A DNA stretch of 40,500 nucleotides from assembly GCA_035529355.1 (NCBI GenBank), contig DATKWX010000008.1, positions 1 through 40,500 of the forward strand, written 5' to 3'. Of this stretch, positions 6,127-25,712 are shown in pieces. The position numbers were made by a program, and so were the translations under genes. Source of the DNA: Candidatus Bathyarchaeia archaeon. Lineage in GTDB: Bacteria > Patescibacteriota > Microgenomatia > UBA1400. Each line of letters starts with the position of its first letter. The stretch's first letter is position 1. The notes below the pieces were generated by a model. It ran no database searches. It had not been told where the DNA came from and was given only the letters and a program-made list of their open reading frames with translations.

Positions 6127-6150
6127 CAAAAAGCTTAATAAAATAGAAAA

Positions 6151-6180
6151 AGGGTCGGACCCTGTCAAGGGTCTGACCCT
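6151..6180. repeat. REP-like palindromic hairpin, copy 1; probable intrinsic terminator of the MerR-like gene on the - strand
   Basis: AGGGTCGGACCCT-GTCA-AGGGTCTGACCCT: 13-nt arms with one G.T wobble. On the - strand it is followed by TTTTCTATTTT. It lies directly after the stop of the 6185-6490 gene. Confidence 0.6.
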
Positions 6181-6184
6181 TTTG

Positions 6185-7195: not shown

Positions 7196-10100
7196 ATGTC
7201 AAAATTCACTGCCCATGCCAGTAAAGTTATTGAAAAGGTCGCTTTGGGGCGCCTTAAAAAGGCGGAAGCGAGCCGTTTGCTCAAGGTTTCCCGTAAAACC
7301 GTTTATCAGTGGTTAGCCAAATATAAAAAGGCTAGAGAGAATAGGCTTCGCCACGGAAAAAAAAGAGAATTATTTAAACAAGATGTTTTAAGAATTGGTT
7401 TGGCTAATTCCGGCTTCGGACCGAAGAAAATCTCAGAAGAACTTCGTAAAAGAGAAAAATATCTTAGCCCTAAAAGTGTTTGGCTTTTGCTTAAAGATTT
7501 AGATCTGGGGACGCAGAAAAAGCGTTGGAGTTATACTTTCAACTTCAGGAAACCTCAACAGGTCAAAGATGCTAACTTTCCTGGTTATTTAAGGCTCATT
7601 CCGGAAACAAGGAAGCAGCTTTTGGAAGAAGTATTGATTGGAGATGAACCGGTTTCCCATGTCTGTCAGCGCTACCATATTTCCCGAAAGACTTTCTATA
7701 AATGGTTAAAGCGCTACCAAGAGGCACAAGCTAAAGATACGGTTCTTGTAAAGGCCATGGCAGATAACAATCCTTTGGGTTTTGCTCATCCCCGGGCAAT
7801 TTCTGAAGAACTGCAGGAAAAGATACTATATATAGTAAGAGAGCATCCGGAGTACTCGACTCACAAAGTGGCCCAGGTATTAGCTAAAGTAGGTAACCAT
7901 GGGGTGCAAAATGTTTTTCAAAGGTTTAACCTTAGTACCTATGAGAAAAGATTGGTTTACAGCCAAGCTTATCAGCCAGTAACACTGCCTCCTTTTGCCC
8001 GGATCCTGGATTTCCTCAAACCCGTTTTTGGCAGACTGCCTACCTTGTCTGCTATTCCTCCGCCTCTTATAGCTCTATTAGCAAATCTTCTGGTAAAACT
8101 TCGAAGACTTAGTCTGTCTTCTTTAAAAGAGATTAATTTAAAACAGATTAATTTCAAAAAAATCAAGCCTCTTTTACCCTATTCCTTCCTCAGTTTCCTT
8201 GCCGCTGTTGTTTTCTCCTCAGGCTTTATTTACTGGACTAAAATGTTATCTCAGGCTCCCAATCTGAGTGCTAAGATAGGCTTGGTCATGGCCAGCAGCG
8301 CTTTGTTCTTCGGTTCCATCTTCTTTGTCTATTCCCTCAAGTATTACTTTAGCCTCATCCTGGTTTTGTCTTTTTCCCGGCATTCCCCTGAAGAAGGCGG
8401 AGGTCTGAGCATTGCTTTGAATGGGAGGGTTAATGGTAATAGGAATGGTTATGGTAATGGTAGCAGTAATGCTAATGGCAATACTACTATTAATAGTCAT
8501 ACCGGGTTTTTAGGTTTCCTTAAGAAGGTCTTTGGGATTGAGGTTACTGCTAATGGGAATGGAGAAGGCAATGGTTATTCTAATGGTGAAGGTAGTACCA
8601 CCAGCCAAAACCCCAAACAGTCTTTCCTGGAAAATGGCGGAGAGCATCAGGGAAATGGTCTTCAGCCCAACCTTGACCATATCTTTCTTACCCGTCATCC
8701 TTTCATCTCCATCCAGATTCCTTTGTACAACGAGAAGAGAGTAGCCAAAAGAGTCATCAAAGCCTGCATGGCGATGAAGTATGGCCCGGATTGGCCAGAC
8801 CAACCCCAGTTTGAAGTGATTGTTTGTGATGACTCCAATGACGAAACCAGTAAACTCATCTCAGACCTCCAAAGAACCTATGGCAAGGTTAAGGTCATCA
8901 TGGGAGAAGACGGAGAAAAGATCTCCCAGGTCTCAGCCATCGGTAAACCTACCCTCAAGGTAATCCACCGGGAGAACAGGGAAGGTTTCAAAGGCAAAGC
9001 CCTGTCTTATGCCCTCAAATACATGGATTCCCAAACTGAGTTTTGTTGTGTCTTTGATGCTGACTTTGTTCCTTACCCCGATACCCTTACTCAGTTCATC
9101 AAGTATTTCAAAGCCACCGGCGGCTGGGAAGAGAAACAGAGATTTGTAACAGGAAGCATTAGTTCGATACCTTCTGATATATTGGGAAGGACAAGGCTTA
9201 ACCGCAGTCAGGAGCAAGCCTACCAAGTCCAGGAAGCAGGACTTAAGACCAAGTCCAATATCGCCTGTATTGCCGGCTACCAATGGCATGTCTTAAACAA
9301 ATCAGAAAACTGGATTACCCGGGGAGTAAGATCAGAATATGCCGGATCCTACGTCATTGAAAGACCAAGCCAGGAAATCCTGGGCAGTCTAAAACTCATC
9401 CATGGTTCTTCATACTGCATGAGAGCTGATGTCCTAAAGCACTTTGGCTGGGGAACAAGTATCACTGAAGACTTTGAACTTACCCTAAGACTATATGAAA
9501 AAGGCTTCAAGGTTGTCTACACTCCCTATGTCCAAGCTCCGGCTGAGTGTGTGAGTACCATCAAAAGACTCATCAGGCAGAGAATGAGGTGGGCTGAAGG
9601 CCACTCCTTTAATATCAAGAAGATGTTTGGGAGACTGATGTTTGGTAGGTGGCAAGAGCTTCAACCTTGTCATTCTGAATTTATTTCAGAATCTTCTCCC
9701 AAAACCGTCATACTGAATTTATTCCAGCATCTTTTTCATCTTAGAAAGGTAGGGATCCTGAAACAAGTTCAGGATGACGTTGGACGTCAAGTCCAAAGCC
9801 TGTCCCGAATTCATTTCGGGAATGACGCGGTAGAAGGTAGTGCTAGACGCTTCATCCCCAGCCCTCTTACTTTCCCTGAAAAAGTGGAATTCCTTTACTT
9901 ATCTCCCTACTACCTCCAGGCTTTCTTTTTCCTTTTAGGCACCTTTTCCTGGTTAATTGCCGAAACCGTCTTCAAAGCAAGGCTGCCTTTTTGGACAGCC
10001 TTATGGGGTTGGTCTCTGGTTTTGACCAACTTCTTTGCCTTACCTTTGCTTAATGCTGTTGGCCTCTTTCTTGAAGAAGCAGAAGAAAAAGACTATTCAG

Positions 10101-13100
10101 GTTTAGCTTCCTTCATTATCCTTTCCTACATCCTTGTTCCTTTCCAAGCCTATGCTTCGGTTAAAGGCTTCATGGAGAAAAAAGAAGGTCCTTGGTTCAG
10201 AACTCCCAAGACTGGAAAGATTACTGATGTTTTCAAAAGAGGTAGTTTTTATCGCTGGGTATCAGGAATACTGCCGGGAAGGAAACTGCCTTCTTTTGGT
10301 TTCTCTTTTCAGTCCCGTGACCTGGCCCTAAACTACCTTCATGATATTACTACCAGTAACAATCCTTTTAGCAACTTCAGGATCAGAAAAAGACATTACC
10401 GGGGTTTTATGGCAACCATGCTTGTTTTCCTGATCATTTGTTCTTCCACCATCTTCAGCATGCTGCCTTCAGTTCCCCAAAACAAGATTCCCTATGCCCA
10501 GGCTCAGGGACAGCTGGGGATTAGTCCTACATCAGCAGAGAACAAAGACACAGCAGACAATGGGAACACCAAGCTGGCCTTAAACTCCATCCCACCTTCT
10601 GGTAATGGAAAACCACCAGTGATTCTGACAGACAACAGAGAGAAGAATTCAGAATCAGCTCAGACCTACCTGCCCGGCAGGCAGGATTCAGAACTGGAAG
10701 AAACAGCCATGAGCGGGAATCAAACCCCAAGTCTTAAAGTTGAAGAACATAGTCCTGATAAAACTCCCCAGGACTTTTACCTTAAAGTCGTAGATCCTGA
10801 GTCCGCAGAAGGAAATGATAAAGGTAACTTTGTTCCTTACAGACTGACTAAGAAAGACAACACCATTGAAGTAGAAACCAGATCAGAAAAAGGCATCCAG
10901 AAGATAGTGATGGATAAAAACTCAACAGAAGTTAGACTTTATGAAAAAACCACAGCCCCAGACACCCCCGAGGTGAATTCTGCAGACACCTCGGGGGTGA
11001 ATCAGGAAGCAACTGACTTTGTTTTTAAGGCAGTCTCGGTACCTATCTTTGAGTACCTTCCTAATGATCACCTCCAAGGTGATTCTTCCTGGCAGGATTA
11101 CACTCCTTTAGTACCGGGAACTTTATCTTCCCAAGACAATGAGGATTACGCTATAGTAAGGTTAGACTTTGACCTTGTTTCCCAGGATCCCTTTGTTTCT
11201 ATCCCAGCTTCCATAGAACTTAAGATAGGCTACAGCAAAGACCAGGGAAGCATTAACAAACTTTCCTTTAGCCTTCAAGATAATCCTAATACCAATAGAC
11301 TAAGGTGGGAGACTAAGATAATTCAGAATTCACCTGCCAGCAATGCTTCGCCCGCCAGCAATGCTTCGCAAAACGATGCGGGCTGGCAAAGCGAGGCAGA
11401 CGGGGAATTCAGAATTCAGAATGATAATTTCAACCTGACAGAACAAAGGAATGAAGACCTGGAACAGCTTTACCAGGCTTCCATCATAAACCCTCCGCTG
11501 GTAAAACAAGACTTTGATAACCTCAACCTAAACTGGTTTGATTTCTTCAAACAGTATTCCTACCCTCCTTATTTAGGAAACAGCGTCAGGGTAGAACAAA
11601 ACGCAGAGGATAATACCAATACGGTTATCTTTTATCCGGAAGGAAAACCAGGCAGGTTGGAGGTGGACCCGACGGTAACTACGACGGTGGCTGTTTCAAC
11701 AATCACGGTTCAAAGTTCAGACTTTGATAACTCCGGCTCAACAGGTTTCAAGATAATCTTTGACAATACTAAAGGTGGCACCATTGATGAGTTTTACCAT
11801 GATTCAATTGGTGTCGGAGCTACTAATATTGTTTCTGGTAATGCTGTTTATGATGCTTTGTTTGATATTGAATATGATGACGCATATCTTTCTGGTGATG
11901 CGACTGGTTCTTTAACCTTAATTGAAGCTAGCCCCAATAGGGCAGTAGTGAAGGCAGTTGGTAATGTGACTACAAATGATGTAGCGACGATTGACTACAC
12001 CATTTATCCTGATGGTCAAGTTTTTATGAAAGTGGCTTTAGAGATTAAAGACGGAGAAAGGAATGGTGAAGGTGATATGTTCTTTCTGATTCAGGACTAT
12101 GACGGTTATAAAGAAACTTACTCAAGCGTGGATGATACTAACAAAGCGGTTGTTTTATTGCCTGACGCCAGCGGTTTTGATACAGCTTTAATTCCTTACT
12201 CAAGTTCTTATGTGGGAACAGTTGATAACGCTGCCAGTGAAGCTAATGACAATATCATGGTCAAATACGATTCAGCGGCTTCAGGCTATGATGATGAAAC
12301 CACGGTTGAAAGTTACTGGTTTTTGGATCTTTCCGAAAGCGCTTATGATGCCACGCTTTTGACCAACAGAAGAAACGAATACCGGAATTTGGAAAATCCT
12401 GATGTTTTGCAAAACCTAAGTCCGACGGTAGTTTCTCCATCTGATTCTTCACCTCCAATTCAGTTATCAAAAGGCTCAATCCAGGTTGATGTGCCTAACA
12501 GATACCGGGCAGTGATGCAGACAGGGGATACGGAGGACTATATGTTAATCTATGACCGGGCGCAGAATGACAGCAGTCCTCTTAATACTTATGAATTTAT
12601 GGGGCCATATATTTATGAAGATAGTGCTGCCTATATGTTAAGGTATCATAACTTGAGAAAGACAACTATTCTGGAGTCTTCCAGTGTAAGAGTGAGAGTG
12701 AGAGTTGAGGGTTGTTTTGACACTGTCGCCGGCGGCGCCTGTCTCGGCGGGACTGATTTTACGGTGATTGAAGATTACACTTTTACCACCGAAGGCATCT
12801 ATGTTTCCAACATTACCGACTTTAATAGCGGCGGCGTGGCTTTAGATACACCGGGAGCCAATGAAAACGGCTACAACTTCCTGATGATTGATGGTGATAT
12901 TCAGGATGATGCTTTTGCTGGTACTTTATATTACGGAGACGGCAATACCGAAGCTAGTTCAGCTGTAGACGCGACTTTTGAGGAAACTAACATTTATGCG
13001 ACTTTTCCGGCGGTTGACGCTTCCGGCTATCAGTCGGCTATTGTCGGTATCCAAAGAGATGGTTGGCTTGACCAAGCAGGAGGAACAGAAGACTGGCGGA

Positions 13101-15637
13101 TTGATATCGGCGTCGGCACCACCGACCGGCTCCACGCCCGAGAGGGCAATGTTACGCCAACAGGCCTTCTCTATGCCAAATGGTATTTTTTGCTCCAGCC
13201 CGAGAACGACTTGGATGCTGAAGCCGAAAGAGAGAGCTTTAACAACGATAATCGTAATCCCGACACTCTCACTTTTGCCACCGGTAACCAATGGAGTTTT
13301 GAGGACGATTCGGACTTGGAGGGACTGTGGTATATGGAGAGCGATGGCTCAACTGCTGAAACCGATCAATCCACTAGGGGTAATAACTTAACGGTTAGTA
13401 CAGACGACACTATACCGCGAACCACCGATGCCAGAGAAGGAACCTACTCCAGGGATTTTGAAAGAAGTGACACTGATTCTTTAGGTATTGCCGATGCCAG
13501 CCAGAAAGGACTGGATTTTACCGCTGTTTTTACTCTTTCCGCTTGGGTGAATCTTGAAACAAACACAAGCGCAGGCGATATAATTTGTAAAGGCAGTTCC
13601 GGAGTGGCAGCCGTCGGTGCTTACAGTATGTACTACAGCGCTGGAAATGGCCTTGGAGCTAGATTAAGTAATGGAAGCGCTTTTAGCTGGCTTGAAACAG
13701 CAGGATCGGTATTGCCTGATGGAAGTTGGAGTCACGTGGCACTTACTTTCAACGGCGCTACAGTCAGAGCTTATATCAACGGTTCGGAAAACCGGACCGG
13801 CAGTTTTCCGGCAAGTTACGCCAATACGTTAGCCAACAGTTCTTACTATTTTTGTATCGGCGGCACTGGCGGAAGTACAAGTTGTAGTGGAACCTTTGAT
13901 GGTTTAATTGATGAGGCCGCTGTTTTTTCCCGCGTCCTATTCCCTGCAGAAATTGAGCAGATTTATAAAGCCGGAGTCAAAGAACACTACAACGAAGCTG
14001 AAGGAGCTTATACGGTTGACGCTTCAGGTTCGCAGGTGAATTTGGATATTGATGGAGGGAGTAACGCTTCGACAGCTGTTGCGACGACAGCAGTTACGGT
14101 TGGAGTAACCTCTATCACCGTTGGTTCAACCACAGGCTTTCCCGCCGCTCCCAGTCTAGCCTATATTGACGGCGACAAGTTTTCCTATACCGGTACAACC
14201 GCGACTACCTTTACCGGTATCCCTGCCAACGGAGAACTCTCTGTTACCGATCATGCTATCGGCAGCGTGGTTTCTTCTATGAACCGGTACAAGCCTAACT
14301 TTAAAATCCGTAACTACCGCCAAAACAGCAAGCCAAGTTCCGTGACCATGGAAGGAGCCGCGCTGGTTGAAGGCACAAATTATAATGTTGACTATAAACC
14401 GGTCTCCGACGCCTATTTTGCCGATGAGTTGCTTTGGGCTTCGACATTAGAAAGCGCCGCGGTGGTGACTAGTCCAGATATAGGTGGCGCCGGTTCAGAA
14501 TGCGGTACTAAACCGAGCTATACTACTGGGAAGTATGGAAATGGGGTTAAGTTTGATGCCAGTGGTGAATGCCTGTATTTTGCCACTACGGGTAACTTTG
14601 ATAAGGCAAAAGGGGCGATTGAATTTTGGTATAAACCAACATTAGTCTATAGTGATGCAGCAACCCATTATTTTATTCAATTATACCAAGACGCTAATAA
14701 TTACTTCCAATTTTACAAAGCAAGTAGTAACAATTTGATTTTCATAATCGATGCCAGCAGTACTCAAAGTGGTGTTCGAGTTGTAAGCACTAACTATTCC
14801 TGGGCCGCTGGCGATTGGGTTCATTTACGAATCCAGTGGGACGATACTGATCTCAGTACCGAAACCCAGATGAAAATTTACATTAATGGAGTGGAGTCGG
14901 CCCATGATCATCCTGCAGCCAACGACTATAACTCAGCTAATTTGACTCTTCCAACTAATATAGGAATTAGTAATTCTGCTGCTGGACTCCATGCTGATGG
15001 GATTATCGATGAATTTCGCGTCTACGGTGGTGCTGCCGCCACTCCAATTACTCTGGCCGATGGCGGCGATATTGCTGATACTGACGAATATCTTTTTGAC
15101 GAAGAAAATGATTATCAATTAGACTTTGATCCGGTTGATGCTGATGCTACAGAAAGAGGAGAATATCTTTTCTTGGGTGCTGACACGATGTTTGCGGGGG
15201 TTAATATTGATCTAGCTACCAATGGGGCAACAGCCGGAAGCTTGAACCTTGTTTGGGAATACTGGAATGGGTCTTCTTGGGCTGATCTTGAGAGTATCTC
15301 CGGGTTTACTGATGGTACCAGCAACCTCACCACTGATGGAGCGATTTACTGGAATGCCAATCCTACCAACTGGAGGCCATACTCAGTTAATGGCTCAAGC
15401 GATCTTTACTATATCCGTACCTCTCTGAAGGATGATTCGGGAACTTATTCCACTGATCCAATTGAAAACTTTATTAAAACTGATATCCTAATCCTCCAAT
15501 ACCTGAGCAACGTTGTTTCAGACAGCCAGACCTTGGTGGTCGTACCGGAATACCTCTGGCCATTCCTGGCAATCATTCCTTTTATCCCAGGGTTTTTGAA
15601 GAAAAGAAAAAAGGGTCAGACCCTGTTAAGGATCTGA
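7196..15637 (+). CDS. giant multidomain membrane protein: 2x transposase-type HTH modules + processive GT2 synthase + LamG-containing ectodomain + C-terminal sorting signal
   Basis: Uninterrupted 8442-nt ORF. 7196-7960: two HTH+winged-HTH modules of IS630/IS481 N-terminal type (SRKTVYQWLAKYKK; SPKSVWLLLKDLDL; ISRKTFYKWLKRYQEAQ; HPEYSTHKVAQVL) with no DDE domain. About 8170-8390: TM helices. 8408-8670: Asn/Gly linker. 8695-9625: GT2 core with DD 8828-8833, DAD 9056-9064, TED 9464-9472 and QRMRW 9578-9592. About 9630-9860: 71 extra codons absent from the paralog. 9890-10160: TM helices, then PWFRTPKTGK. 10411-10467: TM anchor. 10470-15544: ectodomain with two LamG/ConA-like modules (about 13315-13970 FDGLIDEAAVFSRVL; about 14425-15030 ADGIIDEFRVYGG). 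15545-15634: PEY-TM-KKRKK tail. Confidence 0.85.
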   Translation: MSKFTAHASKVIEKVALGRLKKAEASRLLKVSRKTVYQWLAKYKKARENRLRHGKKRELFKQDVLRIGLANSGFGPKKISEELRKREKYLSPKSVWLLLKDLDLGTQKKRWSYTFNFRKPQQVKDANFPGYLRLIPETRKQLLEEVLIGDEPVSHVCQRYHISRKTFYKWLKRYQEAQAKDTVLVKAMADNNPLGFAHPRAISEELQEKILYIVREHPEYSTHKVAQVLAKVGNHGVQNVFQRFNLSTYEKRLVYSQAYQPVTLPPFARILDFLKPVFGRLPTLSAIPPPLIALLANLLVKLRRLSLSSLKEINLKQINFKKIKPLLPYSFLSFLAAVVFSSGFIYWTKMLSQAPNLSAKIGLVMASSALFFGSIFFVYSLKYYFSLILVLSFSRHSPEEGGGLSIALNGRVNGNRNGYGNGSSNANGNTTINSHTGFLGFLKKVFGIEVTANGNGEGNGYSNGEGSTTSQNPKQSFLENGGEHQGNGLQPNLDHIFLTRHPFISIQIPLYNEKRVAKRVIKACMAMKYGPDWPDQPQFEVIVCDDSNDETSKLISDLQRTYGKVKVIMGEDGEKISQVSAIGKPTLKVIHRENREGFKGKALSYALKYMDSQTEFCCVFDADFVPYPDTLTQFIKYFKATGGWEEKQRFVTGSISSIPSDILGRTRLNRSQEQAYQVQEAGLKTKSNIACIAGYQWHVLNKSENWITRGVRSEYAGSYVIERPSQEILGSLKLIHGSSYCMRADVLKHFGWGTSITEDFELTLRLYEKGFKVVYTPYVQAPAECVSTIKRLIRQRMRWAEGHSFNIKKMFGRLMFGRWQELQPCHSEFISESSPKTVILNLFQHLFHLRKVGILKQVQDDVGRQVQSLSRIHFGNDAVEGSARRFIPSPLTFPEKVEFLYLSPYYLQAFFFLLGTFSWLIAETVFKARLPFWTALWGWSLVLTNFFALPLLNAVGLFLEEAEEKDYSGLASFIILSYILVPFQAYASVKGFMEKKEGPWFRTPKTGKITDVFKRGSFYRWVSGILPGRKLPSFGFSFQSRDLALNYLHDITTSNNPFSNFRIRKRHYRGFMATMLVFLIICSSTIFSMLPSVPQNKIPYAQAQGQLGISPTSAENKDTADNGNTKLALNSIPPSGNGKPPVILTDNREKNSESAQTYLPGRQDSELEETAMSGNQTPSLKVEEHSPDKTPQDFYLKVVDPESAEGNDKGNFVPYRLTKKDNTIEVETRSEKGIQKIVMDKNSTEVRLYEKTTAPDTPEVNSADTSGVNQEATDFVFKAVSVPIFEYLPNDHLQGDSSWQDYTPLVPGTLSSQDNEDYAIVRLDFDLVSQDPFVSIPASIELKIGYSKDQGSINKLSFSLQDNPNTNRLRWETKIIQNSPASNASPASNASQNDAGWQSEADGEFRIQNDNFNLTEQRNEDLEQLYQASIINPPLVKQDFDNLNLNWFDFFKQYSYPPYLGNSVRVEQNAEDNTNTVIFYPEGKPGRLEVDPTVTTTVAVSTITVQSSDFDNSGSTGFKIIFDNTKGGTIDEFYHDSIGVGATNIVSGNAVYDALFDIEYDDAYLSGDATGSLTLIEASPNRAVVKAVGNVTTNDVATIDYTIYPDGQVFMKVALEIKDGERNGEGDMFFLIQDYDGYKETYSSVDDTNKAVVLLPDASGFDTALIPYSSSYVGTVDNAASEANDNIMVKYDSAASGYDDETTVESYWFLDLSESAYDATLLTNRRNEYRNLENPDVLQNLSPTVVSPSDSSPPIQLSKGSIQVDVPNRYRAVMQTGDTEDYMLIYDRAQNDSSPLNTYEFMGPYIYEDSAAYMLRYHNLRKTTILESSSVRVRVRVEGCFDTVAGGACLGGTDFTVIEDYTFTTEGIYVSNITDFNSGGVALDTPGANENGYNFLMIDGDIQDDAFAGTLYYGDGNTEASSAVDATFEETNIYATFPAVDASGYQSAIVGIQRDGWLDQAGGTEDWRIDIGVGTTDRLHAREGNVTPTGLLYAKWYFLLQPENDLDAEAERESFNNDNRNPDTLTFATGNQWSFEDDSDLEGLWYMESDGSTAETDQSTRGNNLTVSTDDTIPRTTDAREGTYSRDFERSDTDSLGIADASQKGLDFTAVFTLSAWVNLETNTSAGDIICKGSSGVAAVGAYSMYYSAGNGLGARLSNGSAFSWLETAGSVLPDGSWSHVALTFNGATVRAYINGSENRTGSFPASYANTLANSSYYFCIGGTGGSTSCSGTFDGLIDEAAVFSRVLFPAEIEQIYKAGVKEHYNEAEGAYTVDASGSQVNLDIDGGSNASTAVATTAVTVGVTSITVGSTTGFPAAPSLAYIDGDKFSYTGTTATTFTGIPANGELSVTDHAIGSVVSSMNRYKPNFKIRNYRQNSKPSSVTMEGAALVEGTNYNVDYKPVSDAYFADELLWASTLESAAVVTSPDIGGAGSECGTKPSYTTGKYGNGVKFDASGECLYFATTGNFDKAKGAIEFWYKPTLVYSDAATHYFIQLYQDANNYFQFYKASSNNLIFIIDASSTQSGVRVVSTNYSWAAGDWVHLRIQWDDTDLSTETQMKIYINGVESAHDHPAANDYNSANLTLPTNIGISNSAAGLHADGIIDEFRVYGGAAATPITLADGGDIADTDEYLFDEENDYQLDFDPVDADATERGEYLFLGADTMFAGVNIDLATNGATAGSLNLVWEYWNGSSWADLESISGFTDGTSNLTTDGAIYWNANPTNWRPYSVNGSSDLYYIRTSLKDDSGTYSTDPIENFIKTDILILQYLSNVVSDSQTLVVVPEYLWPFLAIIPFIPGFLKKRKKGQTLLRI
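9669..9826. mobile_element. cluster of four small palindromic (GTCATTC..GAATGAC family) hairpin units embedded in frame in the giant CDS
   Basis: 9669-9693: GTCATTCTGAA-TTTAT-TTCAGAATC. 9707-9731: degenerate copy. 9755-9778: ATCCTGAA-ACAAG-TTCAGGATGAC. 9802-9826: GTCCCGAA-TTCAT-TTCGGGAATGAC. The segment is missing from the paralog at the homologous position. The same unit family is intergenic at 23913-24002. Confidence 0.6.
11333..11368 (+). repeat. 18-bp tandem duplication (PASNAS x2) inside the giant CDS
   Basis: cctgccagcaatgcttcg / cccgccagcaatgcttcg, 17 of 18 identical. It is flanked by ATTCAGAAT(TCA) repeats at 11321-11332 and 11407-11422. Confidence 0.7.
15545..15634 (+). other. C-terminal tripartite sorting signal (PEY - hydrophobic helix - KKRKK)
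   Basis: PEYLWPFLAIIPFIPGFLKKRKKGQTLLRI. The layout matches PEP-CTERM/PEF-CTERM-type signals. The motif PFIP and the basic cluster are shared with the paralog tail. Confidence 0.55.
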
Positions 15638-15640
15638 CCT
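15612..15640. repeat. REP-like palindromic hairpin, copy 2 (degenerate), containing the stop codon of giant gene 1
   Basis: AGGGTCAGACCCT-GTTA-AGGATCTGACCT. It is followed by CCTAACGAA (15638-15646) and CCCTAACGAA (15652-15661), whose reverse complement flanks copy 4. Confidence 0.55.
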
Positions 15641-15707
15641 AACGAATTAAACCCTAACGAACTAAAGAAGCAAAAATACCTTAAGCAAAAATAGTCTTTT
15701 TACCTCA

Positions 15708-15980: not shown

Positions 15981-18900
15981 ATGACTACCAAACTGTCTGT
16001 TCAGCAAAGAATAAGGTTGATAAATAAGGTTACTAAAGAGGGAAGGTCTGTTTCTGAGGTTTGCAAAAAAGCCGGTATTTCCCGTGTCCTTTTTTACCGC
16101 TTACTAAAACGGTATCAGGAAGAGGGAACAGTTAGGCCTAAAAAAAACAAAGGAAAAAGGCCAACCCGGAGAGTCAGCGAAGAAAATGTTATCAAAATAA
16201 TTAGCTTGGTTAAGAAACATCCCCGGTGGTCTTCTCATCAGTTAAGCCAACATGTTTCCACAGGCAATCATGGGGTATGGAATGTTTTAGCCAGGTTGCA
16301 CCTAAATACCGTTAAGAAAAGGGAGTATTTCAGCAAGCAAAGCCGCAATTTAACCTTTGGCCGGTTGCGCAAACTGGCAAGAGGAGAGATTAAAAGTCCC
16401 AAGCCAACAGCTTTAAAACTCAAGGCCAGCAGGCGTTTGGCCATGATTAAGCAAATAGAAGAAGGGCAAAAGCCGGTAGCCCAGGCTTGCCGGGAGTTTG
16501 GTATTTCCCGGCCAGTCTTTTATAAATGGTATCAGCGTTATCTTGAAGCTCCGAGAGGGCAGAAATTGGTGGCCATGAAAGATAAAGAACGGAAAATTGA
16601 ACGCTTTAGCCGCCAGATTCCGGTTAAATACGAAAAAGCGGTGTTGCAGGCAGTGGTTAGGCATCCCGAATACGGGATTAAGAAAATAATGGTTTGTTTA
16701 CCCCAAATAGCGGCTAAGCCAATTGTAGGTTATCATGGCGTTCAGCGGGTTTTGGAAAGGAATAAACTAAACACTTATGAGTTGAGAAAAGCTTATGCTC
16801 AAACTCAGCTAACTCCCGTCATTAGAATCATTAGCATTCTTGAAGATAGCTTTGCCAAAATAGCTTACCTACCTCTTCTTGTCAGACAGAAATTTATCAT
16901 ATTAGGCAGTCTTGCGGTCTTTTCCTGCTTTTTGACCGTGGTAGGATTGGGAGCCTTAGGCTACTTTGGCAGTTTACTAAAACAAGTGCCAGGAAATGCT
17001 AAAATTGGTATTATTTTGGCTGGTAACGCCTTGGTTATTGGTTCAATCTTTTTTTGCTACTCTTTAAAGTACTATTTTAATTTGGCTTTAGTGCTTTCTT
17101 TTTCCAGGCATTCTCCGGAAGAAGGCGGAGGTCTAAGCCTATCCTTAAATGGGATAGTAAATAACAACAGGGCGGGTAATGGTAAAGGCAACGGTAAGCC
17201 TGGGTTTTTAGGTTTCCTTAAAAAGGTCTTTGGGGTTGACCTAGGCGCTAATGAGGGCGGTAACGGTTTTAAGAATGGCAAAAAGACATTTTTAGGTAAT
17301 GGTTTACGAATGCAGGATGGTGGTTTACAGATTAATATGGAGAGGATTGACCTTAACCGTCATCCTTTCATTTCCGTCCAGATCCCTTTGTACAATGAGA
17401 AGAGAGTAGCCAAAAGAGTCATCAAGGCCTGCATGGCCATGAAGTATGGCCCTGACTGGCCAGATAAACCCCAGTTTGAGGTAATCGTTTGTGATGACTC
17501 CAATGATGAAACCAGTAAACTCATCTCAGACCTCCAGCAAACCTATGGCAAGGTTAAGGTAGTTAGGGGAGAAGACGGAGAAAAGATCTCCCAAGTCTCA
17601 GCCATCGGTAAACCTACCCTCAAGGTAATCCATCGGGAGAACAGGGAAGGTTTCAAAGGCAAAGCTTTATCTTATGCCCTGAAGCACATGGATCCTCAAA
17701 CCGAGTTTGTTTGTGTCTTTGATGCTGACTTTGTTCCTTACCCCGATACCTTAATCCAGTTTATCAAGTATTTTAAGGCTACCGGTGGCTTTGAAGAAAA
17801 ACAGAGTTTTGTAACAAAGAATATTAGTTCGATACCATATGATATATTGGCAAGGAATAATCCACAGGGAAATACCAACCTAACCAGAGATCAGAAGCAA
17901 GCCTATCAAACCCAGGAAGCAAGACTTAAGAACAAGTCCAATATAGCCTGTATTGCCGGCTACCAATGGCATGTCTTAAACAAATCAGAAAACTGGATTA
18001 CTAGGGGAGTCAGATCAGAATATGCCGGATCCTACGTCATTGAAAGACCAAGCCAGGAAATCCTAGGCAGTTTAAAGCTTATCCATGGCTCTTCATACTG
18101 CATGAGAGCTGATGTCCTAAAGCACTTTGGCTGGGGTAGTAGTATTACTGAAGACTTTGAACTTACCCTAAGACTATATGAAAAAGGTTTCAAGGTTGTC
18201 TACACTCCCTATGTCCAAGCTCCGGCTGAGTGTGTGAGTACCATCAAAAGACTGGTTAGACAGAGAATGAGATGGGCTGAAGGCCACTCGTTTAATATCA
18301 AGAAGATGTTCTGGTTGCTGATAAAAAGTCCAGGGATGAACTTAATGGAGAAAACAGAGCTTTTATATTACACACCCTATTACCTCCAGGCATTTTTATT
18401 TTTAGTTGGCACTTTTTCCTGGTTGTTGGCAGAAACCGTCTTTAAAGCCCATCTGCCTTTCTGGACCTCACTTTGGGGTTGGAGTCTAATTTTGACCAAC
18501 TTTTTCAGCCTGCCTTTACTTAATGCCGTGGGTTTATTCCTTGAGGAAGCGGAGGAAAAAGATTATTCAGGCCTGATTTCCTTTATTATCCTTTCCTACA
18601 TCCTTGTTCCTTTTCAAGCTTATGCTTCGGTCAAAGGATTCCTGGAGAAAGAAGAAGGTCCCTGGTTCAGAACTCCCAAGACTGGAAAGATTACTGATAT
18701 TTTTAAAAGAGGTCAATTTTACCGTTGGATAGCAGGAATTTTGCCCAGGCGGGAACCAGCATTGCAAGGAGTGATGGGAAGCGGCTTGGTTCCTGCTTAT
18801 GCTTATCAGCAAAACCCTTATTTGGTCCGGCAAACAGCCACAGGCTGGTTTAACAATTTTCGCGTCCAACCCAAGCGTTTGCGTTGGGTTTCAAAAATGG

Positions 18901-19595
18901 CCTTGTCTCTTTTACTGGCTTTTTCCGTGACTCTTTTAAGTTTAAGTCAAGGGGTAAGAGAAGTTCAGGCAAGCCCTTGGAACAATTTATACTTACATGA
19001 AGATAATGGGGTATGCAGCACTTTGGATACCATGACGACTTCAGTCGGAACAACAGGCCAACAGCAAATAGTGATTTCCGCCTCAAATACGGGTCCTTTT
19101 AACTGGTATTCAAACTCCTTGCCTACCGGTACTCTTGATGCTTCAACAACCGCTGGCAACTGGAATTTCCATTGGGAGGGAGTATTTTATGCTGCCGCTG
19201 GTGGAGCCAAGGTGGTACTTAATATTGTGATTAGTTTGGTTGATGCTTCAGATTGTAGCAGCAGTGCCGATAATTTATATAGCGGAACTTACCAGTTTAG
19301 CTCCAATGGTCCGATAACGATTACTACTGCTGTTCCAGCACGAACAATCACTACGGCTGCTCCCAAAAGAGTCAGGTGGCAGACTTCTTGGAGTAGTACC
19401 AATAAGGCCGGTTCGACAATGAGCATTAAATACAATGATACGGTGGTCAGTGGTTTTGATTCCAATCTTCAGCCAGCGACTTTAACGATTCCGGAAAGAC
19501 TAGTTTTACTGCTGGTGGTAGCGCCCTTTATTCCCATACTTGCAAGTTGGCTTAAGAAGAAAAGAGAAAAGGGTCAGACCCTTGACAGGGTCTGA
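15981..19595 (+). CDS. paralogous multidomain membrane protein: 2x HTH modules + processive GT2 synthase + short ectodomain + C-terminal sorting signal
   Basis: 1204-aa ORF. 15981 to about 16800: two HTH modules (GISRVLFYRLLKRYQEEG; GISRPVFYKWYQRYLEAPRG; HPEYGIKKIM). TM helices and an NG linker follow. 17361-18300: GT2 core nearly identical in DNA to copy 1, with QRMRW at 18261-18275. More TM helices and PWFRTPKTGK follow. 18897-18955: TM anchor. The ectodomain is about 180 aa. 19491-19592: PER-TM-KKKREK tail. Confidence 0.85.
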   Translation: MTTKLSVQQRIRLINKVTKEGRSVSEVCKKAGISRVLFYRLLKRYQEEGTVRPKKNKGKRPTRRVSEENVIKIISLVKKHPRWSSHQLSQHVSTGNHGVWNVLARLHLNTVKKREYFSKQSRNLTFGRLRKLARGEIKSPKPTALKLKASRRLAMIKQIEEGQKPVAQACREFGISRPVFYKWYQRYLEAPRGQKLVAMKDKERKIERFSRQIPVKYEKAVLQAVVRHPEYGIKKIMVCLPQIAAKPIVGYHGVQRVLERNKLNTYELRKAYAQTQLTPVIRIISILEDSFAKIAYLPLLVRQKFIILGSLAVFSCFLTVVGLGALGYFGSLLKQVPGNAKIGIILAGNALVIGSIFFCYSLKYYFNLALVLSFSRHSPEEGGGLSLSLNGIVNNNRAGNGKGNGKPGFLGFLKKVFGVDLGANEGGNGFKNGKKTFLGNGLRMQDGGLQINMERIDLNRHPFISVQIPLYNEKRVAKRVIKACMAMKYGPDWPDKPQFEVIVCDDSNDETSKLISDLQQTYGKVKVVRGEDGEKISQVSAIGKPTLKVIHRENREGFKGKALSYALKHMDPQTEFVCVFDADFVPYPDTLIQFIKYFKATGGFEEKQSFVTKNISSIPYDILARNNPQGNTNLTRDQKQAYQTQEARLKNKSNIACIAGYQWHVLNKSENWITRGVRSEYAGSYVIERPSQEILGSLKLIHGSSYCMRADVLKHFGWGSSITEDFELTLRLYEKGFKVVYTPYVQAPAECVSTIKRLVRQRMRWAEGHSFNIKKMFWLLIKSPGMNLMEKTELLYYTPYYLQAFLFLVGTFSWLLAETVFKAHLPFWTSLWGWSLILTNFFSLPLLNAVGLFLEEAEEKDYSGLISFIILSYILVPFQAYASVKGFLEKEEGPWFRTPKTGKITDIFKRGQFYRWIAGILPRREPALQGVMGSGLVPAYAYQQNPYLVRQTATGWFNNFRVQPKRLRWVSKMALSLLLAFSVTLLSLSQGVREVQASPWNNLYLHEDNGVCSTLDTMTTSVGTTGQQQIVISASNTGPFNWYSNSLPTGTLDASTTAGNWNFHWEGVFYAAAGGAKVVLNIVISLVDASDCSSSADNLYSGTYQFSSNGPITITTAVPARTITTAAPKRVRWQTSWSSTNKAGSTMSIKYNDTVVSGFDSNLQPATLTIPERLVLLLVVAPFIPILASWLKKKREKGQTLDRV
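19491..19592 (+). other. C-terminal tripartite sorting signal (PER - hydrophobic helix - KKKREK)
   Basis: PERLVLLLVVAPFIPILASWLKKKREKGQTLDRV. It shares (V/I)PE-x-L, PFIP and a Lys-rich cluster with the 15545-15634 signal, although the two ectodomains are unrelated. Confidence 0.55.
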
Positions 19596-19615: not shown

Positions 19616-20275
19616 ATGCCCAGAAAGAATGTGGTGAAAATTTACGTTGAAGACGGCTATTACCATCTCTATAACAGAGGTGTAGAGAAAAGAGTGATTT
19701 TTAGCGACAAAAGGGATTATAAAACTTTCCTTTACTTTTTAAAAAGCTACCTCACACCTGTGCCAAAAAAGATTCCTCCTTTTGACAGGCGGCAAGTAAG
19801 GAGTTTATCAAAGGATATTGATTTGCTTGTTTACTGCCTTATGCCTAACCATTTCCATTTATTAGTTAAACAGAAAAGCGAAAGGGGAATAACTAAATTT
19901 ATGCGCGCCTTATGTACTAATTACGTGATGTATTTTAATCAAAGGTATCAGCGTTTGGGAGGTTTATTTCAAAGTGCTTATAAAGCGGTTTTGGTAGAAA
20001 CTGATGAGCAACTATTGCATCTTTCCCGGTATATTCATTTGAATCCATCAGAATTACTTGGGAAACATCAATTATTAGAAGATTACCTTTATTCAAGCTA
20101 CGATGACTATATGGGAAAAAGAAAGACAAATTGGCTTAAAACAGAAACGATTTTGGATTATTTTAAAACTGCTCGTAAAACCAGCCTTAATGATTTTCTT
20201 TCTTATCAAGGTTTTGTGGAATCTTATAAAGAAGACGAGAAGGAATTCAGTTTTAAAGGAGTAACGTTAGAATAA
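19616..20275 (+). CDS. REP-associated tyrosine transposase (RAYT; IS200/IS605-like Y1 HUH transposase)
   Basis: 219 aa. YHLYNRGVEKRVIF; HUH motif in LVYCLMPNHFHLLVKQ; GGLFQSAYKAVLV with the catalytic-type Tyr; LSRYIHLNP. The gene is bracketed by REP hairpins at 19571-19598 and 20297-20330. Confidence 0.85.
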   Translation: MPRKNVVKIYVEDGYYHLYNRGVEKRVIFSDKRDYKTFLYFLKSYLTPVPKKIPPFDRRQVRSLSKDIDLLVYCLMPNHFHLLVKQKSERGITKFMRALCTNYVMYFNQRYQRLGGLFQSAYKAVLVETDEQLLHLSRYIHLNPSELLGKHQLLEDYLYSSYDDYMGKRKTNWLKTETILDYFKTARKTSLNDFLSYQGFVESYKEDEKEFSFKGVTLE

Positions 20276-20296: not shown

Positions 20297-20330
20297 TTAG
20301 GGTCTGACCCTGTTAAGGGTCAGACCCTAA
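20297..20330. repeat. REP-like palindromic hairpin, copy 4 (3' of RAYT)
   Basis: TTAGGGTCTGACCCT-GTTA-AGGGTCAGACCCTAA, a 15-bp perfect stem. The central A-T pair is flipped relative to copies 1-3, which preserves pairing. The 5' flank TTCGTTAGGG is the reverse complement of CCCTAACGAA next to copy 2. Confidence 0.65.
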
Positions 20331-23877: not shown

Positions 23878-23912
23878 CGTGAATTACGAAATAGTTAGCC
23901 TTATTGTTCAAT

Positions 23913-24002
23913 GTCATTCCCGATCCGATCGGGAATCTATAGACGTCATTCCCATGAAAATGGGAAACTATATAAATAGATTCCCGCCTACGCGGGAATG
24001 AC
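23913..24002. repeat. intergenic cluster of three GTCATTCC..GGAATGAC-family hairpin units
   Basis: 23913-23937: GTCATTCCCGAT-CCG-ATCGGGAATC. 23945-23968: GTCATTCCCAT-GAAA-ATGGGAAAC. 23980-24002: ATTCCCGC-CTAC-GCGGGAATGAC. The first two units carry the 5' GTCAT flank and the last carries the 3' ATGAC flank. Confidence 0.6.
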
Positions 24003-24054
24003 AGAGGTAGATTTTGTAACTCAAGCTAATTTAATGATCTAAAACCTTGCATTT

Positions 24055-24076
24055 CTGACTAACGGCTGTTAGTCAG
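24055..24076 (+). promoter_or_regulatory. 5'-UTR hairpin abutting the Shine-Dalgarno of the 24090 gene
   Basis: CTGACTAAC-GGCT-GTTAGTCAG, a 9-bp perfect stem. It is followed directly by AAAGGAGAGG and ATG 24090. Confidence 0.3.
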
Positions 24077-24089
24077 AAAGGAGAGGATT

Positions 24090-25712
24090 ATGAAAGAAAA
24101 AAATATTGAAGCTCTGAGGGTTAATAACCCTCAAGGCGTCGGTTTTTCGCGAAGGCGGAATAAAAAAACCGGGGTAAAAGAAGATTTAAAAAAGATGGGC
24201 ACGCTGTTATTATTGGTTTTTTTATTTATGATGGCTTTAGCACCGAGACTTTGGTTTATTTTCCGGATTAGCGAGCCGATTGACATTCCTATGTGGTACG
24301 GAGATGTTTTTCATCACTGGCAGATTGCTTATTTATCCAAAGAAATCGGTTTTAAACAAGGTTTTTTGCGGTTATGGGACTTAAAAGGGATGGAATTTTT
24401 TTGGGGTTTAATCCATCCTTTGGTTTTGGTAATTCTTTTTACCTTGACCGGTTCCAGCAATATTTTAGTGCCTCGATTGTTAAGCGTTGTTTGTGGTTCT
24501 TTAAACATTGTTCTTCTCTACCTGATTCTGAAAAGAGAATTTAATTGGCAGACCGGTTTGGCCGCGGCTATTTTGGCCAGCTTTTTTCCGATTACCCTTT
24601 TTTCCAATACCGTGGGAATGCAGGAGGAACTGGGGATGTTTTTTATTTTCTTGGGAATTTTCTTCTGGCCAAAAAGTCCTGCAGGAACAGGATTGCTTTT
24701 TGGTCTGGCGGCTATGGAAAGAACGGAGTATTGGTTATTTACTTGCGGTTTAGTGCTGGCGCTTATTTTAAGAAGCAAAAATTTTGACAAAAAAATAATC
24801 TTAGGCTTAAGTTATTTGGTGGTTAATTTGTTTTACATGAAGTATTTGGATTTCTGGACCGGCAATGCTATTTATCCTATTTATTGGAATTTTATTTCCT
24901 CCGTTAAAGGAGAATGGTTCGTGGAACTGCCGATTAATGGGGCTAAATTAGTTGCCCAGCAGATTAACAGGGTTGTTTTCTTTTTTGGCCTAATTGGTGG
25001 ACTTTTGACTTTCTGGAAAAAACCAAAAGGCTTTTTATTGCTGTTGTTTGGTTTCAGCAATCTGGTTTTTATCGGCTTTATGCTCGGTTTTGGCGCTTAT
25101 GTCAAGGGTTTTGCGCCGCGGGTTTGGACGGACAGGCTTTTTAACTGGCCTTACCTCTTTAGCCTGATTTTGATATTAATTTTTTTGTTTTGGGTAGTAC
25201 CAAATAAAGCTCGGTTTTGGGCAAAAATCAAACTTAACTGGCTGATTTTTTTTGGGATTTTGGTTCTTTCCTGGCAATTATGGCAGCCGATAATTTATTT
25301 TTGGAATGATGTTGGCAAGTTTAATTATGAAGCGGAAAAGGAAAAAGCGGGAATGATTGCTAAACATTATCAAAAAGGAAGTGTTTTAATTCCGGAAGAT
25401 AGACCAATTTTAACTTATTTTTTAACTAACGATTTTGCTATAAAAGGAGAAAATATAAGAGGCCAGATGTTTGACCCTTTTTTTTATGCTAAAACTGAAC
25501 CTTTAGATAATTGGGGAGAGTTTAGAAAAGAATTTAGGGATTGGTTAGAAACACAGAAAATAGAACTTTTATTTATCAGTAGTGGTGAACATAGAGCCTT
25601 ATACCAACAAGCGGCTTTAAAAGAACCGGATTGGTTTGAATTATTGGAGGAAAAAGAAGGAAGCAAGGTTTATCGCGTTATTTTACCTCCGGATAGCCAG
25701 AGTTTTGATTAA
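24090..25712 (+). CDS. polytopic membrane protein with C-terminal soluble domain (ArnT/PMT-like GT-C candidate)
   Basis: 540 aa with a basic N-terminus, about 11 hydrophobic helices and a hydrophilic C-terminal domain of about 130 aa. A strong SD precedes it. The family call is by architecture only. Confidence 0.55.
   Translation: MKEKNIEALRVNNPQGVGFSRRRNKKTGVKEDLKKMGTLLLLVFLFMMALAPRLWFIFRISEPIDIPMWYGDVFHHWQIAYLSKEIGFKQGFLRLWDLKGMEFFWGLIHPLVLVILFTLTGSSNILVPRLLSVVCGSLNIVLLYLILKREFNWQTGLAAAILASFFPITLFSNTVGMQEELGMFFIFLGIFFWPKSPAGTGLLFGLAAMERTEYWLFTCGLVLALILRSKNFDKKIILGLSYLVVNLFYMKYLDFWTGNAIYPIYWNFISSVKGEWFVELPINGAKLVAQQINRVVFFFGLIGGLLTFWKKPKGFLLLLFGFSNLVFIGFMLGFGAYVKGFAPRVWTDRLFNWPYLFSLILILIFLFWVVPNKARFWAKIKLNWLIFFGILVLSWQLWQPIIYFWNDVGKFNYEAEKEKAGMIAKHYQKGSVLIPEDRPILTYFLTNDFAIKGENIRGQMFDPFFYAKTEPLDNWGEFRKEFRDWLETQKIELLFISSGEHRALYQQAALKEPDWFELLEEKEGSKVYRVILPPDSQSFD

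Follow-up and report, generated by a model that had tools for sequence, protein, structure and literature searches.

A giant gene in a 40,500-nucleotide stretch of DNA (GenBank assembly GCA_035529355.1, contig DATKWX010000008.1, positions 1 to 40,500, hereafter the window) contains 71 codons more than its paralog just behind the QxxRW motif of a family 2 glycosyltransferase (GT2) synthase domain. Our analysis indicates that these codons are probably selfish hairpins of the repetitive extragenic palindromic (REP) type that have been captured and translated in an old permissive cytosolic loop of the synthase. The window corresponds to nearly all of JGI contig Ga0307379_10001189, and the features that define the loop and its host gene are the following:

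7196-15637, + strand: giant gene 1 (copy 1), 2813 amino acids (open reading frame list, translation and Pfam)
9578-9592, + strand: QRMRW, the QxxRW motif of processive GT2 synthases, 16 codons 5' of the left anchor of the loop
9641-9652, + strand: left anchor FGRW (TTT GGT AGG TGG), FG[KRH]W in 31 loop-bearing homologs
9653-9847, + strand: hypervariable loop interior of 65 codons (residues 820-884), QELQPC...EGSAR, filled by REP-type units
9848-9871, + strand: right anchor RFIPSPLT, conserved as [RK]x[WF][VI]PS[PKR]L[TS]
15981-19595, + strand: copy 2, the paralog without the loop, 1204 amino acids (translation and alignment to homologs)

Pfam assigns N-terminal transposase-like helix-turn-helix (HTH) domains, a transmembrane (TM) region and a GT2 synthase domain to both copies, and additional Laminin_G_3 domains to copy 1. 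The AlphaFold2 (AF2) model of copy 1 has PDB matches among hyaluronan, cellulose and chitin synthases, and its TED and QxxRW motifs align by sequence to BcsA, with QRMRW corresponding to QRIRW of the E. coli protein. The closest proteins to the query region are GT2 proteins of Woesebacteria, Gottesmanbacteria, Curtissbacteria, Chisholmbacteria and other Patescibacteria, and the host genome is of the Patescibacteria type. The loop site comes after the helix that bears the QxxRW motif and before the next predicted membrane helix. In copy 1 the segment from FNIKKMF to PYYLQAF measures 92 residues versus 21 in copy 2, in which the equivalent of the loop site (18264-18389, RMRW...YYLQ) has the canonical short form of 42 residues. 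Within the AF2 model (mean predicted local distance difference test score, pLDDT, of 64.5), the insert scores 39-57 and its flanks 71-82, and FGRW and RFIP (model residues 395-398) are paired as two short beta strands.

The interior of the loop is occupied by four tagged stem-loops, two on each strand, and by one small untagged hairpin:

9668-9695, + strand: H1, TGTC tag, 8-bp stem ATTCTGAA/TTCAGAAT, 5-nt loop tttat, tail CTT
9706-9733, + strand: H2, CGTC tag, degenerate stem ATACTGAA...TTCCAGCAT, tail CTT
9752-9779, - strand: H3, CGTC tag, 8-bp stem ATCCTGAA/TTCAGGAT, 5-nt loop cttgt, tail CCC
9780-9796, no strand assigned: 6-bp mini-hairpin without a tag, TTGGAC-GTCAA-GTCCAA, within the spacer that separates H3 from H4
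9800-9827, - strand: H4, CGTC tag followed by AT, 7-bp stem TCCCGAA/TTCGGGA, 5-nt loop atgaa

Re-translation and a hairpin search reproduced what the initial annotation had described here, namely the coordinates, the four units, the lengths of 92 and 21 residues and the translated peptides. Its proposal that the extra codons are largely palindromic hairpin units kept in frame was also borne out: over positions 9653-9847 the gene frame has no stop codon, and the other two frames have 4 and 6. H2 and H3 form a dimer with the tags outside (head-to-head, HH) and a 23-nt spacer, and H1 and H4 form an outer HH pair, while the spacers in the two arms of the insert are unrelated to each other. H2 is a direct repeat of H1 (89% identity over 27 nt, 38-nt spacing), so that these two units are probably the result of a local tandem duplication. 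When folded as single-stranded DNA (ssDNA), the insert has a z score of -4.0 and none of 200 shuffled sequences was equally stable; the RNA fold of the loop interior reaches z = -5.2 (-64 kcal/mol for 195 nt). The tryptic peptides predicted for the segment include VGILK, QVQSLSR and IHFGNDAVEGSAR.

Units of the same kind are present in the window outside the loop, in an extragenic cluster:

23912-24003, no strand assigned: cluster of three units, 2 forward and 1 reverse, between two + strand genes
within 23912-24003, + strand: I1, TGTC-ATTCCCGAT..ATCGGGAAT-CTA, 9-bp stem, 3-nt loop
within 23912-24003, + strand: I2, CGTC-A-TTCCCAT..ATGGGAA, 7-bp stem
within 23912-24003, - strand: I3, TGTC-ATTCCCGC..GCGGGAAT-CTA, 8-bp stem, 4-nt loop

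I2 and I3 form a tags-outside pair with a 13-nt spacer, and the 5' arm of H4 closely resembles the 5' arm of these intergenic units. The common tag and architecture uphold the earlier assignment of the loop units to the family of this cluster (then placed at 23913-24002). Using a strict definition of the unit (YGTCAT, a perfect stem no shorter than 7 bp, loop of 3-6 nt), we counted 6 units in the window; 200 dinucleotide shuffles yielded 0.03 on average and never more than 1. The search for further copies, which the initial annotation had suggested, covered the 40.5 kb of the source genome and sequences beyond it. The 40.5 kb contain 7 YGTC units in 2 clusters, and 1 more unit was found on another contig of the same sample, L102 (L and P numbers designate the loci compared). 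Scanning JGI metagenomes with the pattern GTCATTCCC-N7-13-GGGAATCTA detected the unit consensus on at least 120 contigs with a GC content of 29-66%. Among the 131 metagenome units listed, the base before GTC was T in 85, C in 42, A in 3 and G in 1, and 38 were within a stop-free stretch of at least 100 amino acids, most units being extragenic. With matches on at least 120 contigs and only 38 of the 131 listed units in long open stretches, the YGTC-tagged units thus form a widespread family that is found mainly outside genes, as described for the CGTC-tagged REPs discussed below. Related loci of the candidate phyla radiation (CPR), 1.0 Mb in total, contain 15 strict units, most of which are arranged as HH dimers and end in the canonical CCA tail. 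Of these 15, 9 fall within long open frames, among them the GT2 loops of L006 and of L069. HH dimers are also present in L023, L024, L033 and L069.

The architecture of these units is that of the CGTC-tagged REP superfamily, defined by Di Nocera, De Gregorio and Rocco in 2013 (BMC Genomics 14:522; PMC3733652). According to this work, CGTC REPs have a terminal CGTC that is often TGTC (with the variant CCTC), an 8-9 bp stem starting with AT, a loop of 4-5 nt and a 3-nt tail with the consensus CCA, and occur mostly as HH dimers with partners 20-100 bp apart (PMC3733652). They are mostly extragenic, but in-frame intragenic singles, dimers and clusters coding for 43-82 amino acids have been described; they are present in tens to thousands of copies per genome, and no transposase gene is associated with or flanks them (PMC3733652). 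Our units share with them the tag, the stem, the loop, the HH dimers and the in-frame clustering. In all seven units of the window YGTC is followed by AT, and stems range from 7 to 9 bp and loops from 3 to 5 nt. H1 carries TGTC and H2, H3 and H4 carry CGTC, while I1, I2 and I3 carry TGTC, CGTC and TGTC, respectively. Stem and loop measure 8 bp and 5 nt in H1 and H3, 9 bp and 3 nt in I1 and 8 bp and 4 nt in I3, and all of these stems start with AT; H4 and I2 have 7-bp stems with a broken AT pair, and H2 is degenerate. In the pairs H2/H3, H1/H4 and I2/I3 all tags are outside. The only Y1 transposase gene of the window is bracketed by a different hairpin family (family B, see below) and not by YGTC units. 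Differences from the published superfamily are the tails (CTA, CTT or CCC versus CCA), some 7-bp stems, a 3-nt loop and the host, because Patescibacteria are not among the reported hosts, which are Proteobacteria, Chlorobi, Bacteroidetes, Spirochaetes and Thermotogae (PMC3733652). The 3-nt position behind the stem reads CTT, CTT, CCC, CAG, CTA, ACT and CTA in H1 to H4 and I1 to I3, and the consensus CCA was seen in the related CPR loci.

The precedent cited by the initial annotation, the Rickettsia palindromic elements (RPEs), proved apt, since RPE-4 and RPE-6 are themselves CGTC-tagged REPs: CGTC-1 equals Neisseria dRS3 and Rickettsia RPE-6, and CGTC-4 equals RPE-4 (PMC3733652). The relatedness of our units to RPEs is taken from this published equation. 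In common with RPEs, which are in-frame palindromic repeats of protein genes that are translated in tolerant surface regions, the insert is in frame at a tolerant place, as judged from the open frame, the low pLDDT, the paired anchors and the existence of loop-less homologs. RPEs, reportedly described by Ogata and colleagues in 2000, occur in a different phylum and in hosts with another lifestyle, and classical RPE-1 is 100-150 bp long and has its own consensus. Moreover, RPEs are dispersed among numerous genes with no relation to each other; in our case, palindromes are found again and again in a single fixed loop of a single gene family. Repeats of the dRS3 type flank intergenic mosaic elements and serve as integration sites for phages or insertion sequences (ISs). 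The intergenic units of the window, ATTCCC-N8/9-GGGAAT with a YGTC tag in a small cluster, are comparable to dRS3 (ATTCCC-N8-GGGAAT, arrays of Neisseria intergenic mosaic elements), but no phage, IS or mosaic-element context was seen at the window units. GTAG REPs and REPINs with their REP-associated tyrosine transposases (RAYTs), together known as REPtrons, are likewise short tagged hairpins in inverted pairs, and the window does contain a hairpin-bracketed RAYT-like Y1 gene. We rejected membership of this group: the tag is YGTC, the Y1 gene is flanked by family B, and its protein scores 39.5 bits where the RAYT model has a cutoff of 80. Another comparison is offered by the in-frame miniature inverted-repeat transposable elements (MITEs) of Coxiella burnetii, which are likewise small non-autonomous palindromic elements and have, to go by the title of the report, implications for protein evolution (PMC5896051). 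MITEs have IS-derived terminal inverted repeats and target-site duplications, neither of which was seen at the insert; no direct repeat flanks it and the arm spacers are unrelated, so we did not assign the insert to them.

To place the insert in its protein context, we compared the loop site across homologs. Among the best 120 protein matches, 98 have a copy 2-like anchor-to-anchor segment of 49 residues and 22 have a longer one (62-117 residues) in the same place. At the level of genome loci, a loop is present in about 38 of 77, with 55-114 residues from RMRW to YYLQ versus 42 in loci without it. The loop-bearing loci have 13-72 extra residues at the same site, comprise 33 distinct loop sequences and derive mostly from metagenome-assembled genomes (MAGs) of Patescibacteria/Microgenomates, some being otherwise labelled. 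The anchors FG[KRH]W and [RK]x[WF][VI]PS[PKR]L[TS] occur in nearly all loop-bearing sequences, the short loops of L014 and L015 being unmatched, and the loop-less class carries the signature xSPxLT, which is also that of copy 2. Because the synonymous positions of the anchors vary freely (GGN; TCN or AGC; CTN or TTR), the anchors are conserved as protein and not as a DNA terminus, and on the same grounds we rejected the possibility that they are the DNA termini of a homing element. A homologous loop interior was not found in any homolog examined. In the ortholog comparison that the initial annotation had proposed, a loop occupies the same site in about 38 loci, and the interiors are non-homologous and mostly palindromic. 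None of the 33 distinct loops has a stop in the gene frame, although 29 and 27 of them have stops in the other two frames. On these grounds we rejected the possibility that the segment is bypassed during translation or excised, in the style of T4 gene 60 or of mitochondrial 'byp' elements.

Strong folding is a frequent property of these loops, with z below -3 in 12 of 30 versus 2 of 27 control segments of the same genes (Mann-Whitney p = 5e-5). Many consist of a single long hairpin across the whole loop, and in about one third excess structure is absent (z > -2). Units that carry a YGTC tag but belong to other subtypes are present in the loops of L006, L029, L023, L024, P0013, P0047 and P0029, and the unit in the loop of the L006 ortholog has the stem ATCCTGAA and the tail of H3 in the opposite orientation. 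Several loop elements also occur elsewhere. The 'NYSNYS...LGQLGIRN' element of the L017, L027, L049 and L011 loops is found in frame at another position of the L053 gene (L053:1019-1113), and the element of the L016/L018 loop recurs in a third GT2 paralog encoded by the same genome, where it occupies the first variable site (L016:20465-20533). In addition, the hairpins of the L050 and L021/L068 loops match other loci of other genomes (L027:7705 and L051:3291). When the 10-20 kb flanking a loop were searched for copies of its sequence, there were mostly none, and the cross-genome search was more informative. Two homologous contigs of other genomes end inside the loop, as expected because assemblers meet repeats there. 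A second variable site of the synthase, from FDADF to GYQWH (36-97 residues), holds REP dimers in L069 (10463-10531), L082 and L034, and several CPR genomes have other strongly folding fills or palindromes there. The equivalent in the window (9053-9289) has 79 residues (85 in copy 2) and no excess structure.

On this evidence, the 71 extra codons would be the current fill of an old permissive loop that lies 16 codons past QxxRW and is closed by the FGRW and RFIPSPLT strands. The fill consists of four CGTC/TGTC-tagged REP-type stem-loops arranged as two nested HH dimers, of the same superfamily as the 23912-24003 cluster, Neisseria dRS3 and Rickettsia RPE-4/RPE-6. The hairpin DNA may have arrived by the route through which REPs propagate, either ssDNA hairpin transposition or template switching, possibly followed by the local tandem duplication that gave H1 and H2. 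It would have persisted because the loop tolerates any peptide with an open frame, and the loop would be translated as a cytosolic segment of low order without a specific function. The near-identity of the paralogs upstream would derive from gene conversion that stops at the non-homologous loop.

Several observations weigh against this interpretation. No target-site duplication and no direct sign of transposition were found at the insert, and the sole nearby direct repeat (GATGTTTGGGAG / GATGTTTGGTAG, 9622-9648) is wholly to the left of it. H1 and H2 look like a local tandem duplication, and the palindrome of the L010 loop looks like an in-situ inverted duplication when compared with the within-genome paralog L009. 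CTGAA stems are found in three of the 4 units of the loop, whereas the intergenic cluster has CCCG stems. The unit count comes from the 40.5 kb and from L102, a further contig of the same sample, and translation of the loop is suggested by the conservation of its frame.

Two of these points, the L010 palindrome and the H1/H2 duplication, are what would be expected if the hairpins had originated in situ, through template switching or inverted duplication that repeatedly forms and perfects hairpins in a fast-evolving low-complexity segment, with nothing inserted and the likeness to REPs being convergent. The right arm of the L010 palindrome is absent from paralog L009, as an inverted duplication would give, the 38-nt spacing of H1 and H2 fits such a process, and loops are palindromic in most lineages despite their unrelated sequences. 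Nevertheless, we regard an in-situ origin as unlikely. The specific YGTC and AT tag and the tail are also found extragenically in the window and on at least 120 unrelated contigs, a near-identical unit (same stem as H3, tail CCC) is present in the L006 ortholog in the opposite orientation, and elements of the loops are found again at different loci and in different genomes.

The second alternative concerns the age of the event. The initial annotation had proposed a recent in-frame insertion on the basis of the near-identity of the two paralogs. In this scenario, a recent gene duplication was followed by the RPE-style insertion of a composite palindromic mobile element of ~213 bp, copy 2 being the empty site. 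Between the two copies, the block just upstream of the insert does show 88-97% identity, which is interrupted exactly at the insert; moreover, the stems of the hairpins are intact, and copy 2 has the canonical 42-residue short form. The near-identity on which the proposal was built holds upstream only, since past the loop identity is 72-88% for ~360 nt, and it drops to ~40% beyond nt 10266. Along the genes, DNA identity amounts to ~45% in the HTH region, ~70% in the TM region and 79-97% in the GT2 core up to the loop, a pattern that in sequence terms is best described as a gene-conversion mosaic between old paralogs (8665-10266 versus 17400-18750), with the tract breaking at the loop. Neighbor-joining (NJ) trees of the upstream block place copy 1 and copy 2 as sisters at a distance of 0.08; after the loop, the distance of copy 1 to copy 2 (0.21) is comparable to that to genes of other species (0.18-0.21). 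The low identity of the paralogs outside the GT2 core (~40-45%) speaks against a recent duplication, as does the fact that copy 1 carries the old loop-class anchors shared with about 38 other loci whereas copy 2 carries the xSPxLT signature, and no target-site duplication accompanies the insert. The argument from near-identical flanks to a recent insertion therefore fails, because the paralogs are old and gene-converted and the loop site with its anchors is widely shared, and we consider this scenario to have little probability. The architecture of the loop is old, and its present REP content may be young. A single ancient gain was also rejected: instead of grouping loop-bearing genes in one clade, the NJ trees interleave loop-bearing and loop-less genes, with within-genome paralogs clustering, and pairs of loop-bearing and loop-less paralogs occur within other genomes (L009/L010/L080, L014 and L042/L075). 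Because gene conversion is evident, these trees do not choose among gains, losses and conversion.

A third explanation is that the nucleic-acid structure itself is selected, in the mRNA or the DNA, for example as a translational pause ahead of the next transmembrane helix, an RNase site or a recombination or phase-variation switch for which any palindrome would serve. The persistence of palindromy at one fixed site while the sequence turns over across lineages would fit this, and so would the high predicted stability of the RNA. However, about one third of the loops lack excess structure, loop-less paralogs and orthologs function without the hairpin, and the same elements are found at other, unrelated positions. 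We judge selection for structure to be very improbable.

An assembly or annotation artefact, such as a chimeric join of repeat reads or a pseudogene open by chance, has practically no weight even though all contigs of the region end near the same points and two homologous contigs break inside the loop (such repeats do disturb assembly, as these contig ends indicate), because an identical 2813-residue product is found on 6 contigs, those shown coming from 3 samples, two assembly sources and different pipelines (JGI 3300031565, JGI 3300031539 and ENA ERZ27256827), and because the frame stays open over 195 nt with 4 and 6 stops in the alternatives. The misassembly that the initial annotation had named as a possible refutation was looked for, and the recovery of the same product from several samples shows that the insert is not one. 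Searches with proteins from both ends of the window yielded no useful further sequence. As a separate observation, the independent assemblies L003, L004, L005, L087 and L088 all end ~1-9 kb from the window ends, which suggests repeats or strain variation at both window borders.

The hairpins in the loop belong to a type of selfish DNA that was already known and here turns up in a new group of bacteria; the mechanism is not a new one. What is new is the host phylum (Patescibacteria/CPR) and the recurrent use of two fixed synthase loops as palindrome sinks; in the searchable literature we found no description of REP- or RPE-like colonisation of coding sequences in CPR/Patescibacteria. CGTC-tagged REPs and RPE-style coding colonisation are thereby extended to bacteria with tiny genomes, in which selfish repeats are not obviously expected, and a loop refilled repeatedly by unrelated palindromes, always in frame, is a natural example of selfish hairpins becoming protein. 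We put forward, as a speculation that we ourselves hold to be rather improbable, that the two fixed loops of the HTH-GT2 proteins (after QxxRW and from FDADF to GYQWH) are recurrent in-frame sinks or preferred targets by targeting or function and not by mere tolerance. If so, a cytosolic loop in a synthase of cell-envelope polymers would be under constant rewriting by selfish hairpins. Either a site-specific mechanism that acts on the hairpin-prone DNA would target this turnover, or the turnover would be exploited, be it by diversifying the loop or by an mRNA hairpin with an influence on how a giant membrane protein is translated. It would also be the first REP/RPE-like colonisation of coding sequences described in CPR, with a site specificity unreported for REPs. 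For annotation, two cautions follow: near-identity of paralogs here reflects gene conversion and not recency, and repeat-filled loops break assemblies and inflate the apparent protein novelty of giant CPR genes.

Directly 3' of copy 2, the window encodes a putative hairpin-handling enzyme accompanied by hairpins of a second family, family B (AGGGTCNGACCCT pairs):

19616-20275, + strand: RAYT-like Y1 (IS200-type) transposase gene, 219 amino acids
19570-19599, no strand assigned: family B hairpin AGGGTCAGACCCT-TGAC-AGGGTCTGACCCT, 5' of the Y1 gene
20300-20328, no strand assigned: family B hairpin with the arms swapped, 3' of the Y1 gene
6148-6183 and 15612-15641: further family B copies, the second degenerate and at the 3' end of giant gene 1

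The Y1 protein matches Pfam Y1_Tnp (E = 1.3e-10), has HUH (HFH) and YIHLNP motifs, and scores below the cutoff of NCBIfam REP_Tyr_transpos NF047646 (39.5 versus 80 bits). Homologs are present in 6 other loci (L016, L034, L006, L027, L041 and L047), and 3 of the 4 inspected (L016, L006 and L027) are bracketed by their own matching hairpins, the case of L034 being less clear. The gene and family B form a REPtron-like arrangement. This arrangement shows the presence of enzymes that handle hairpins, without linking these enzymes to the units of the loop. We rejected the Y1 gene as the cognate transposase of these units because it is bracketed by the other hairpin family, in agreement with the published lack of a dedicated CGTC transposase (PMC3733652). 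The Y1 protein is a possible candidate for a hairpin-mobilising enzyme that acts in trans on the loop units. Family B hairpins overlap the 3' ends of both giant genes, where they code for ..KGQTLLRI* and ..KGQTLDRV* and supply the stop codon, and the further copy (6148-6183) resembles a bidirectional terminator (AAAAGGGTC...GACCCTTTT).

Some further observations were made on the two giant genes and on the window. Both proteins end in a tail that resembles a sorting signal, with VPEY or IPER, a hydrophobic helix and KKRKK or KKKREK (15530-15637 and 19490-19595), and by sequence these tails resemble anchors of the PEP-CTERM/exosortase type. Between the TM region and the GT2 domain, both have an Asn/Gly-rich low-complexity stretch (NGNGxxNG..., 8400-8660 and 17180-17360) of unequal length. 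The HTH-GT2 gene is also found in many records titled 'uncultured Gammaproteobacteria bacterium' and in others labelled Nevskiaceae or Bathyarchaeia (L014, L024, L027, L028 and others), which may be mislabelled MAGs. No tRNA or tmRNA genes were found in the window, and an Rfam scan of the whole window gave no matches at the gathering score. Giant gene 1 contains another coding hairpin at 10960-11004, a perfect 13-bp in-frame inverted repeat (CACCCCCGAGGTG / CACCTCGGGGGTG) with an 11-nt spacer; it is translated as ..DTPEVNSADTSGVN.., has no YGTC tag and also contains a direct repeat (GACACC...GGTGAAT twice). Next to the intergenic cluster, a 22-nt imperfect inverted repeat with the core TTCTGACTAAC / GTTAGTCAGAA (24042-24089) is located directly 5' of the ATG at 24090, and its 3' arm enters the Shine-Dalgarno-like sequence GGAGAGG, so that it may occlude the ribosome-binding site.

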